Virus record (IMG/VR): IMGVR_UViG_2534681759_000007 | Reading direction: 5' to 3' (one strand) | From: a virus | Taxonomy: Duplodnaviria > Heunggongvirae > Uroviricota > Caudoviricetes | DNA: 20,997 nucleotides | Shown: positions 4,846 through 9,512 of the stretch, piece by piece | How positions within the stretch are numbered: the first letter of the stretch is position 1 | Layout of the letters: every line of letters begins with the position of its first letter | Translations under genes and position numbers: made by a program | The notes under the pieces: generated by a model | Database searches by the model: none | What the model saw: the letters and a program-made list of their open reading frames with translations, nothing else | What the model was told of the DNA's origin: nothing

Positions 4846-4911
4846 TTAGTGATTCAGACCGTTGCCGCGTCCGTCGAGAAAAACTTCCACGAGCAAGTCA
4901 CGGGTATAAGT
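4846..4911 (-). pseudogene. kil: 3' remnant of kil homologue, separated from its 5' part by the IS100 insertion
   Basis: Joining 6866-7095 to 4846-4911 across one copy of the TAAGT duplication restores a continuous frame ending ...IERTYTRDLLVEVFLDGRGNGLNH-stop. The stop (cac taa) sits at the position I remember for the lambda kil stop relative to gam, about 75 nt upstream of the gam ATG. Confidence 0.55.
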
Positions 4912-4918
4912 TGTCAAT

Positions 4919-6865
<1,947 letters not shown>

Positions 6866-7095
6866 TAAGTGCGCTCAATGCCGCGATGCAGATAAAGTCG
6901 TCCGCGTAAATTAGCTGATGCAGTCCAGGTACCATCTTTGCGTTTGACCAGCATTCCTGGCATGACCGCACCGCGATTAACGGTCTGCGTTCCGTAATGT
7001 TGATGAACCATAAAAACTCCTGCCCGTAAGCTGGGCTGCTGAACATATAAAGACTTCTGCGCGTATTCAGGCGGTGGATGGCCGCCGGTTGTCAT
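6866..7095 (-). pseudogene. kil: 5' part of kil homologue interrupted by IS100 (true start uncertain, possibly an internal Met)
   Basis: The open frame from 7095 runs into the IS100 right end at 6865, where the translation switches to IS-derived sequence. Internal Met codons at about 6963 and 6954 would give a reconstituted product of about 50 aa, similar in size to lambda Kil. Confidence 0.55.
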
Positions 7096-7264
7096 AACTA
7101 AGCCGCCTCGTTGAAGCGACTAAGGTATGAAATGTTGAGTTGATTTCAGCTGGTCACACCGACGTTCACGCGTCCGTTTCATCCCTCGCACTCCCCGAAG
7201 CCTGCTGAAATTCAAGCTGCGGATCTAAGCGGTCATCGCAACGGTGAATCAGGTAGTTGCCGTA

Positions 7265-7360
7265 TCGTTGTGTTGTTGCGATGAACTTATTTAAAACTAT
7301 AGTTGTTTTATCGTCAACAACAAAAGTTGTTTTATTGGTTGTTTTAGATATAACTGGTTG
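7265..7360. promoter_or_regulatory. Putative OL/pL operator-promoter region (GTTGTT/AACAAC dyads)
   Basis: Clustered dyad-symmetric sites, e.g. AACAACAAAAGTTGTT (7316-7331) and TTGTTTTATCGTCAACAA (7303-7320), sharing half-sites with the cI-cro intergenic region. Position between the rex-slot gene and the leftward early operon matches lambda OL. Confidence 0.5.
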
Positions 7361-7488
7361 TATTTAGGATGGATTTATTTTGTGACTTGCATCGCACAGC
7401 GATAACTGAAGCGAGGTCGTGGTGGTTTTTTGAACGGTTTGTGTGATGAGGGGAGGCAAAAGAAAACCCGGCACGACGGCCGGGGAAA

Positions 7489-8352
7489 TCATTTCGCATC
7501 TACAATAAATAACCTGTTTATCTGGCCTTTTTTAACAGTAGCCTTTGCGGTTATAGTGAATACTGCAGATGGATCACCTTTGGTTGATATATATGCACTA
7601 AGAGCTCTAATATACGGGTTATTCTTCTTTCCTGCAGCTGGATCGCTAATTTCAGCAGTGATTCTCTTTTTTGAGTCATCACCATCTAAAATTATTTTAG
7701 CTGTCATATTTTGTGCATCAAATTCTGTAAGAAAAGCACGATACTCACGAAGACCGAGAACTTCATCATCATCAAGCCTATCAATTTCAGCTTTATCTCT
7801 CTCGTTAACTTTTAGAAGGCAGCCGTCAACATTTGTTGCAACACTTATCTGATCGCAAGTATTACCAATAGGTGATACTGCCTGCCTTACAGAGGGGCGA
7901 AGCTCTACAGCCATTCGGTCAATCAAAGAGATCAACTTATCAATGGTTCCAGCATCCTTGTTTCCTAGTGCCTCTATGGCCTTTTCAAGTGACTGCTGCA
8001 AAGCTTTCATTTCATCTTTCTTGTTAGAATTTCTCGCAAAAATATATTGTAGTATTGCGCCAAGTATAGTTGCGGCGATCCCCGAGAACAACTGGTTCTG
8101 AGTGGCGAAGTTAAGAACTGCTTCAAGAGTAAAGCAGTTAGCTTTTGCTTCGCGTGCGTAAACCTTAACTTCCTGATAATTAATGTATTTACTATATTTT
8201 TGTGTAACAGAGAAAGAAGCTGCTGTTGAGAGAACTTTAGAAAAACCCTTTAGGGATTCTCCTAGGCAGTTCAAATCTATTTCATGATTTAAAGCATCTT
8301 TTCCGTCATACCTAAGAGAGATTTTTATATCCTGTAAAGCGTCACAATCCAT
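7489..8352 (-). CDS. Hypothetical protein in the rexAB-equivalent slot downstream of cI; candidate superinfection-exclusion/abortive-infection protein
   Basis: 287-aa ORF, ATG at 8352, 66 nt after the cI stop and co-oriented with it; visibly AT-rich relative to flanking phage genes; one central hydrophobic segment ([18 protein letters not shown]); no family recognised. Confidence 0.6.
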
Positions 8353-8418: not shown

Positions 8419-9108
8419 TTATCCATGTTTCCTGTACGTCTGGGGCATGCTCCCAATAACCTTACCGAAGATGAACACCCGGTTCATCTCGTCTTTCTCG
8501 ATCGGGTCCCACGGTGAGTAGCTCTTGTTATCAGAGATAACCAGCAGCTTATCCTTCATCATTTGCAGGCGCTTTACATGGGCTGTGTCGTCGTACAGAA
8601 ACGCATAGATACCATCACCGTCGAAAGATTTAACCGTGATATCAACGAACAGCAGATCACCTGGTTCGATCGTTCCTGACATGCTGTCACCACGCACGTT
8701 AATGATGCGGATATTTTCCGCCTTCCTACCATCGAACATGTGACGAGCATCGTCAAACGAGTACTCAACCGAGCGTAGAACTTCTACAAACTCACGGTTG
8801 ATGACTCCCGGCCCAGCACTGACTTCTATATCAAGAACGTCAATCTTGAAGTATTTGGAATGGCTGACAGTTGATTGTATTGGTTGCACTGTACTGTCTG
8901 ACATATTTCCAACGCCAGAAGATAACCATTCTGCGCGCACACCCAAAGCGTTCGCGATCTCCACGATTTTAGTTGTTTGATTAGCTTTCCCTGTTTCGAT
9001 TTTCTGAATAGCAGCCTGGCTAACCCCGACCAAATCCCCAAGCGCCTTTTGTGTAAGGCCTCGCGCTAATCTGGCTTCTTTAAGTCTTTCTGAGAGTGTT
9101 GTTTTCAT
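8419..9108 (-). CDS. cI: CI-like prophage repressor (N-terminal HTH plus C-terminal S24 LexA-like peptidase domain)
   Basis: Start taken at MKTTLSERLKEARLARGLTQKALGDLVGVSQAAIQKIE (ATG 9108), an XRE-type HTH. C-terminal GDSMSGTIEPGD and HVKRL supply the Ser/Lys dyad of autocleaving repressors. Divergent from cro across an operator-containing spacer. Confidence 0.85.
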   Translation of the reverse strand: MKTTLSERLKEARLARGLTQKALGDLVGVSQAAIQKIETGKANQTTKIVEIANALGVRAEWLSSGVGNMSDSTVQPIQSTVSHSKYFKIDVLDIEVSAGPGVINREFVEVLRSVEYSFDDARHMFDGRKAENIRIINVRGDSMSGTIEPGDLLFVDITVKSFDGDGIYAFLYDDTAHVKRLQMMKDKLLVISDNKSYSPWDPIEKDEMNRVFIFGKVIGSMPQTYRKHG

Positions 9109-9114
9109 AGTCCA

Positions 9115-9180
9115 AATGTACAACCAAGGTTTTATTCCATCAAACGAAAATGGTTGTTGACTAAAAACAACCATAGTTTT
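9115..9180. promoter_or_regulatory. Putative OR operator / pRM-pR region
   Basis: Perfect inverted repeat TGGTTGTT-N7-AACAACCA at 9151-9173 plus additional GGTTGT half-sites in the 104-bp cI-cro spacer. Confidence 0.55.
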
Positions 9181-9212
9181 AATCTTGATTCAAATTAACC
9201 ACGGAGGTTGTT

Positions 9213-9443
9213 ATGAACCCAGCTATCAAAACAGCGATCAATATCGTTGGTTCACAAAAGAAACTGGGCGCTGCTTGCGAAGTTTCACAGCAGGCCGTCT
9301 ATAAGTGGCTTCACAACAAAGCAAAGGTATCCCCTGAACATGTCGGCAGCATTGTTACGGCTACTGGTGGAGTAGTGAAGGCATACCAGATTCGCCCGGA
9401 TCTTCCGAAGTTGTTTCCACACACCGAAAAGAACGCAGCTTAA
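9213..9443 (+). CDS. cro: Cro-like repressor (YdaS-type HTH)
   Basis: 76-aa ORF with GGAGG Shine-Dalgarno sequence, divergent from cI; motif KKLGAACEVSQQAVYKWL is a Cro/YdaS-type HTH. Confidence 0.8.
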   Translation: MNPAIKTAINIVGSQKKLGAACEVSQQAVYKWLHNKAKVSPEHVGSIVTATGGVVKAYQIRPDLPKLFPHTEKNAA

Positions 9444-9512
9444 ATTTCCATTTCACGCTCTTTAACAATAAGCAATCAACTTAACAGTCAATTCAAACTA
9501 AAGGAGTCAATT

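Follow-up and report, generated by a model that had tools for sequence, protein, structure and literature searches.

A probable OL/pL operator cassette of a lambdoid prophage, exchanged together with the repressor type

Here, we analyzed 20,997 bp of DNA (the window) that cover the early genes of a lambdoid prophage, and found that a 96-bp block at 7282-7377 most probably represents its OL/pL cassette. The block contains sites that follow the consensus of the OR region, it lies where lambda carries OL/pL, and its sequence changes with the specificity of the repressor in 111 of 111 loci. This covariation with the cI type is the comparative test that decides for the OL/pL reading. The original prediction had placed an OL-like operator cluster here, and its position, the motif found again at OR, the promoter context and the covariation with the repressor all agree with it.

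About 390 bp between kil and the DUF7946/DUF7947 gene contain no long open reading frame (Table 1). The cluster had been described as lying between the gene 3′ of cI and the leftward early genes; indeed, a terminator is found on one side, and kil followed by gam, bet and exo on the other. The nearest phage records with the same cI as the window are PhiR5_1, PhiR34_1, IdasGreatGrand and Turner, while phages 4A7, 3W and PhiR68_2 have the OL flanks in common with the window but a different immunity.

Of 5426 complete E. coli genomes, 1509 (~28%) carried a 93-bp block of OL and 1521 the cI-OR block, each usually in one copy; the OL stretch bears no annotated feature in those genomes. A search of the full-text literature (operator strings, PhiR phages, Bievrevirus) did not retrieve a description of these operators. 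Very probably, the cassette is an ordinary kind of switch element belonging to an uncharacterized but very common immunity type. These operators leave the concept of lambdoid switch function unchanged; what they provide is a set of testable operator coordinates and a consensus, ACAAC-N4-GTTGT, for a common E. coli immunity type, a corrected cI start in some phage records, and a variable OL-cI slot bounded by conserved recombination flanks. This can be used for prophage annotation, for predicting superinfection immunity groups and for induction or reporter design.

Table 1. Features of the early region, with positions in the window; fractions are matches to the ten half-site positions of ACAAC-N4-GTTGT unless stated otherwise
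Feature	Position	Strand	Remarks
int	1-1164	minus	exo, bet and gam next
istB	4978-5760	minus	IS21-family element
istA	5757-6779	minus	IS21-family element
kil (cell-division inhibitor)	6793-7095	minus	phrog_294, E 1e-28, and annotation in relatives
pL leader	7096-7281	minus	common to both immunity types; without N gene
OL/pL cassette (probable)	7282-7377	minus	immunity-specific, 96 bp, from about the pL start to upstream of the operators
pL -10 TTAAAT (predicted)	7289-7294	minus	17-bp spacer; placement ±1-2 bp
OL1 ACAACTATAGTTTT	7293-7306	minus	9/10; 13/14 bases identical to OR1
pL -35 TTGACG (predicted)	7312-7317	minus	by sequence; aligns with TTGACT of pR
OL2 ACAACAAAAGTTGT	7317-7330	minus	perfect 10/10 dyad; core of the predicted 16-mer AACAACAAAAGTTGTT
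Lone half-site GGTTGT	7337-7342		part of TGGTTGTTTT
Doubtful third OL site ATATAACTGGTTGT	7348-7361	minus	7/10; GGTTGT half alone good
Intrinsic terminator of the cI-cargo transcript	7467-7484	minus	six G-C pairs, then TTTTCTTTTG
DUF7946/DUF7947 gene	7489-8352	minus	287 aa
cI repressor	8419-9108	minus	229 aa; Pfam HTH_3 and Peptidase_S24 (autocleavage domain)
OR3 ACAACCAAGGTTTT	9120-9133	plus	9/10; inside the putative pRM spacer
OR2 ACGAAAATGGTTGT	9144-9157	plus	8/10; adjoins pR -35 TTGACT (9157-9162)
OR1 ACAACCATAGTTTT	9167-9180	plus	9/10; between pR -35 and -10
Fourth operator-like site ACCACGGAGGTTGT	9198-9211	plus	9/10; over the cro ribosome-binding site
cro (YdaS/Cro family)	9213-9443	plus	Pfam YdaS_toxin, P22_Cro; then YdaT-type cII, O and P

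Exchange of the cassette together with the repressor

Alignment of 7090-7500 with five phages revealed that both flanks are 95-100% identical in all of them, and that the block 7282-7377 is kept only in the phages carrying the cI of the window. In 4A7 and PhiR68_2 it is replaced by a block with TTGCTAT/ATAGCAA repeats, which recur in the cI-cro spacer of those phages and are absent from OL and OR of the window. Scanning IMG/VR for the two conserved flanks, with the gap between them left free, gave 120 loci and, together with the earlier loci, 126 cassettes. Only two forms were found, A (that of the window) and B, and the cassette length was 96 bp in all but one, a type-A copy of 97 bp.

Where cI was present on the locus, form A occurred with a window-type cI DNA-binding domain in 56 of 56 cases and form B with the other type in 55 of 55, leaving no discordant locus among 111 (Fisher P = 5e-33, a value that overstates independence since many of the 126 loci are close relatives). 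The better argument comes from the cargo. The interval between OL and cI holds 22 cargo classes, and 10 of these, including the cargo of the window itself, were found with both cassette types, which implies that exchange between OL and cI is frequent. Despite this exchange, mismatched pairs of cassette and cI were never seen.

The type-B cassettes (4A7, 3W, PhiR68_2) resemble those of type A in their flanks and promoter geometry, and from residue ~85 onward, a stretch that includes the C-terminal domain, their cI proteins show 100% identity. In contrast, the operator motif is different and helices 1-3 of cI differ, as do the recognition helices of both cI and Cro. Within a type, these helices start alike in the two proteins, with SQAA in cI and SQQA in Cro for type A and the window (SQAAIQK and SQQAVYK), and with AQPT in both for type B (AQPTIWR and AQPTVWR). 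Repressors related to type B occur in Salmonella phage S149 and phage Fraca; those of S149 (75% identical) and Fraca (67%) were considered as an independent footprint of the type-A motif and discarded, being type-B-like. A residual homology between the A and B cassettes was likewise rejected: their identity is 43% in register and reaches 44% upon circular shifting, so that divergence in situ is indistinguishable from replacement.

The Cro type matched the cassette in all 108 loci carrying cro. It is thus conceivable that Cro, or another phage factor such as a cargo product, is the main protein acting on these sites rather than cI, given that Cro covaries with the cassette as strictly as cI does and covariation cannot separate the two. 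We consider this improbable. Cargo varies independently of the cassette type, which excludes cargo products, and cI and Cro have the same first recognition-helix residues, which argues against Cro alone; to our knowledge, the operators are common to cI and Cro in every characterized lambdoid switch.

For the broader reading of this exchange, we would put the chances at about even: immunity specificity may reside in two separate pieces, namely the 96-bp OL/pL cassette, cut at the transcription start, and a segment with cI helices 1-3, OR and cro, which are matched by selection alone and form a natural two-allele system of repressor-operator co-evolution. The two pieces lie 0.7-2.4 kb apart across a freely recombining cargo hot spot, and selection would maintain the match, as kil would escape repression in a mismatched prophage. 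If true, the A/B pair would make a co-evolution system available in about one quarter of E. coli genomes, or more. The switch would also depart from that of lambda, in that it lacks N, has only two sites at OL and carries a fourth OR-region site on top of the ribosome-binding site of cro.

Predicted operator sites in OL and OR

The operator unit common to OL and OR is a 14-bp dyad, ACAAC-N4-GTTGT, with a 5+4+5 layout. Two OL sites and four OR sites fit it at 8-10 of the ten half-site positions, most of them with one good and one degenerate half. All five sites matching at least nine positions in the 20,997 bp fall in the OL cassette or the cI-cro region (one perfect site, OL2, and four at 9/10; Table 1), compared with 0.64 ± 0.78 and a maximum of 3 in dinucleotide shuffles of the window. 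OL2 is the sole 10/10 site in the window, versus 0.023 expected in shuffles, and when each region was shuffled locally, the observed site counts were not attained in 2000 trials. The hexamer GTTGTT/AACAAC, on which the original prediction was based, occurs 21 times in the window; five copies lie within 72 bp at OL (7272, 7302, 7316, 7326 and 7338) and three in or beside the cI-cro spacer (9153, 9166 and 9207). In 1000 first-order Markov simulations, the highest hexamer count per 100 bp averaged 1.7 and never attained five. The claim that the likeness to the cI-cro spacer exceeds chance is therefore borne out.

Comparison with OR supports the assignment of the individual sites. The dyad recurs there at 9120-9133, 9167-9180 and 9198-9211, and OL1 and OR1 are nearly the same sequence. 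The 8/10 site at 9144-9157 completes an OR1-OR2-OR3 series with centers 23-24 bp apart, and the centers of OL1 and OL2 are 24 bp apart. OL1 lies over the pL spacer and the edge of the -10 element, and OL2 adjoins the pL -35 element with a 1-bp overlap. Read along the minus strand, OL has the order ...ACAACTTTTGTTGT TGACG ATAAA ACAACTATAGTTTT AAAT..., and the plus strand at pR has the order ...ACGAAAATGGTTGT TGACT AAAA ACAACCATAGTTTT AATCT.... The fourth site of the OR region is located downstream of the predicted pR start and shows no variation among 54 type-A loci; it might contribute to the repression of cro or serve the autoregulation of Cro.

Natural variation was evaluated across 26 type-A cassettes and 13 OR variants, all of them distinct. 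Taken over OL and OR, 2 of 60 half-site positions varied compared with 35 of 157 other positions (P = 0.0005); on OL alone the test is weak (2/20 versus 24/76, P = 0.09). The half-site positions of OL1 are nearly invariant among the 26 cassettes, and none of those of OR1 varies in 54 loci. Substitutions within sites are confined to the central 4 bp.

The cluster contains just two strong sites, OL1 and OL2, and a third one is doubtful. Both AACAACAAAAGTTGTT at 7316-7331 and TTGTTTTATCGTCAACAA at 7303-7320 are present where predicted, and TGGTTGTTTT is present as well, one base away from its predicted position (at 7336-7345 instead of 7337-7346). The half-site of TGGTTGTTTT at 7337-7342 is poorly conserved: cassette positions 57-61 are among the most variable, with GGCTGT, GGTTTT, GGTTAT and GGTTGC as natural forms, and this half-site is probably not a functional operator. 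For the doubtful third site at 7348-7361, the left half varies among natural variants, and type B has a copy of its own motif at the matching cassette position. The GTTGTT at 7272-7277 lies outside the immunity-specific cluster; phages of the other immunity type have the same leader sequence there, and it is therefore not an operator of this repressor.

TTGTTTTATCGTCAACAA had been regarded as an overlapping dyad site, but it combines two neighboring half-sites, the right one of OL1 and the left one of OL2, with the inter-operator spacer and its -35 element. A variant of the OL assignment gives this composite a function, with the repressor reading the outward dyad GTTGT(T)-N9/10-(A)ACAAC (TTGTTTTATCGTCAACAA at OL, GGTTGTTGACTAAAAACAACC at OR). 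A longer dyad indeed surrounds the -35 element in both OL (7302-7321) and OR (9153-9171), and a terminator scan took the OR copy as a 9-bp inverted repeat. Its spacing is unequal, however (10 bp at OL, 9 bp at OR), and natural variants accumulate at its center (cassette positions 29-34). Moreover, the outward dyad accounts for only a single site in each region, compared with six sites of uniform spacing for the 14-mer, and domains of the 434 type bind 14-bp sites with the 5+4+5 layout. We attach only a small probability to the outward dyad and retain the 14-mer as the operator unit.

One further operator-like site, ACGATTTTAGTTGT, matches 8/10 at 8963-8976 within the cI coding region and is kept in all three type-A phages that were compared. 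Since about ten 8/10 sites per window are expected by chance, it probably has no significance.

Promoters and proposed regulation

A leftward transcript start had been predicted near 7260-7300. The sequence points to TTGACG-17-TTAAAT with a predicted start at ~7282 ± 2, but a consensus promoter scan of the window called none of pL, pR and pRM. The -10 element TTAAAT is weak (4/6, without A at position 2). An alignment of pL with pR extends over ~35 bp and takes in both the -35 hexamer and the operator proximal to the promoter, and the minus strand of pL (GTTGTTGACGATAAAACAACTATAGTTTTAA) and the plus strand of pR (GTTGTTGACTAAAAACAACCATAGTTTTAA) have the -35 element and the O1 site in common. 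In type B, the equivalent cassette positions carry TTGATA-17-TATTAT, which the scan does call (minus strand, 10/12). The promoter geometry of both types is alike, with the -35 element at cassette positions 31-36 and the -10 element at 8-13. On the other side of cI, a pRM candidate consists of TTGATG (9143-9138) and TACATT (9120-9115) with a 17-bp spacer over OR3. Judged from this placement, pRM would start at or near the ATG at 9108, so that the cI mRNA would have no leader, as is the case in lambda.

The sole promoter-like scan match within the cluster is a rightward one, TTGCGA-16-TATAGT (7276-7303, plus strand), and the sites might regulate this promoter and an antisense or cargo transcript instead of pL. 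This is highly improbable, as the scan gave 4 matches in the region versus 5.2 expected, which is not significant, the -10 element is absent from type B, where the scan calls the leftward promoter instead, and nothing readable lies downstream on the plus strand, whereas the leftward reading matches pR. That the cluster is a chance accumulation of T/A-rich hexamers with no function would be in line with the 70% A+T of the region and the frequency of short two-copy repeats in such DNA, but we consider its probability negligible, with the site counts unmatched in any shuffle or simulation and the cluster swapped as a unit with the DNA-binding domain of the repressor.

Taking the block as OL/pL, we propose the following regulation. 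A leftward sigma-70 promoter starting at ~7282 would drive an N-less operon consisting of the leader, kil, gam, bet, exo, xis and int. The 229-aa cI, with its 434-like HTH domain and LexA-type S24 domain, would occupy OL1 (spacer and -10) and OL2 (-35) as dimers in the lysogen and exclude RNA polymerase, so that pL would be blocked and kil as well as the recombination and excision genes would be silent. The same cI would bind OR1-OR3 (9120-9180), with Cro presumably acting on the same sites, and the terminator at 7467-7484 would insulate pL from the cI-cargo transcript. Upon SOS induction, self-cleavage of cI, presumably stimulated by RecA, would free both pL and pR; this cleavage is presumed because cI carries an S24 domain. 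The motif statistics, the likeness of pL and pR, the location, the covariation with cI and Cro specificity and the pattern of conservation are observed here; binding of cI, cooperativity, the start point of pL and SOS inducibility are what we infer from this arrangement.

The cI gene most likely begins at the ATG at 9108, the start given by PGAP and by the IdasGreatGrand record (229 aa). A 251-aa form starting at 9174 appears in the list of open reading frames and in some phage records (PhiR5_1, PhiR34_1), and the extension (9109-9174) would cover OR2, OR3, the pR -35 element and part of OR1. This longer form is probably an over-extension, since its start lies inside OR1 and the alignment with the 434 repressor begins only at residue 27. 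With cI starting at 9108, the true cI-cro spacer is 9109-9212.

Known switches, leader and flanking DNA

Among solved structures, the N-terminal domain of cI is closest to the 434 repressor (E 4.9e-9; phmmer, residues 27-90 of the long open reading frame against 1per/2or1), followed by 434 Cro (E 2.9e-7). The operators of 434 are 14 bp long, and contacts are made to the outer 5+5 bases but not to the four in the middle (PMC1636474). The sites described here resemble those of 434 (ACAA-N6-TTGT) in length, in the 5+4+5 layout, in the outer bases ACAA...TTGT and in the variable central 4 bp, and cI has kept the Gln that opens the recognition helix. In contrast to 434, the sites carry a conserved C at position 5 and either C or T at position 6, and the identity of the repressors is ~37% over 64 residues (hand count). 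Since the contact residues Gln28, Gln29 and Gln33 of 434 align to Gln, Ala and Lys, the cI system is, as judged from its sequence, 434-like in design but of a different immunity group, and homoimmunity with 434 is not expected.

Compared with OL/pL of lambda, the region has the same place after the terminator of the cI unit (the position of lambda tIMM) and before the early-left genes, with accessory cargo where lambda has rexAB. Also as in lambda, the operators overlap the -35 and -10 elements of the leftward promoter and have their motif in common with OR, the site proximal to the promoter almost equals OR1 in sequence, and the repressor has an S24 autocleavage domain. In contrast, the sites are 14 bp long instead of the 17 bp in lambda and unrelated in sequence, only two of them are strong compared with three in lambda, and kil comes first, with neither N nor a recognizable nutL. 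HK022 is likewise lambdoid without N and has a cI of the same HTH+S24 type, and its cI-cro spacer contains repeats of similar design (TGAACCATAAGTTCA). It was rejected as the same immunity, its cI being only 41% identical; furthermore, the leader has no similarity to the pL leader of HK022, and there is no put-like paralogue downstream of pR.

No N gene is annotated in any relative examined, and the leader contains no convincing boxA/boxB. This lowers the case for a lambda-type early-left operon, not that for OL/pL. Rfam gave nothing meaningful, either at the gathering threshold over the whole window or at E ≤ 5 over 6950-7520, and the leader does not fold better than shuffles (z = -1.06). An HK022-type put RNA or a nutL in the leader was rejected as improbable on this z score, on the lack of a paralogue elsewhere in the window and on the missing similarity to the HK022 leader. 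An Arg-rich 20-aa open reading frame (7120-7182, minus) was dismissed as a mini-N, since its ATG is GTG in 97 of 121 relatives and its stop is lost in many. Its peptide, MKRTRERRCDQLKSTQHFIP, recalls the RNA-binding motifs of N proteins; in many relatives the frame runs into kil, and it is probably not a conserved separate gene. Directly 3′ of cro, at the place of lambda nutR, a near-perfect boxA of the rrn/nut type (CGCTCTTTAACAA) is located at 9456-9468, with no clear boxB hairpin after it and no N gene after pL.

A 9-bp stem can form where the pL transcript is predicted to begin, between 7283-7275 (CAUCGCAAC) and 7242-7234 (GUUGCGAUG). It begins at the cassette boundary, with 8 of 9 pairs in sequence common to both immunity types, and may be a stabilizing 5′ hairpin. 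Downstream, the pL operon opens with kil, for which the PGAP-type start is at 7011, and the 3′ part of this gene has been replaced by an insertion, with the break in homology at 6865. The inserted IS21-family element (4912-6864) interrupts the homology to the E. coli 55989 prophage at 4911/6865, where a 6-bp overlap is probably the target duplication. This copy of the prophage may be defective for early-left expression, because the insertion parts kil from gam, bet and exo in the pL operon.

The terminator at 7467-7484 is directly upstream of OL and kept in both immunity types. Between it and the cassette, ~90 bp (7378-7466) are nearly identical in both types and contain a hairpin, ATCGC-ACA-GCGAT, with a T-run; neither an open reading frame nor an Rfam match nor a promoter call was obtained for this stretch, which may be a mere homology arm for the exchange of cassette and cargo. 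The cargo gene of the window, at the position of rexAB, encodes DUF7946 and DUF7947 (phrog_5147) and gave a weak PADLOC match to PDC-S42 (E 1.5e-4). In the relatives, the slot holds 22 different inserts, including genes annotated as HipA/HipD and GevT/GevA, or nothing; the OL-cI slot is a cargo hot spot, presumably for defense genes by analogy with rexAB of lambda.
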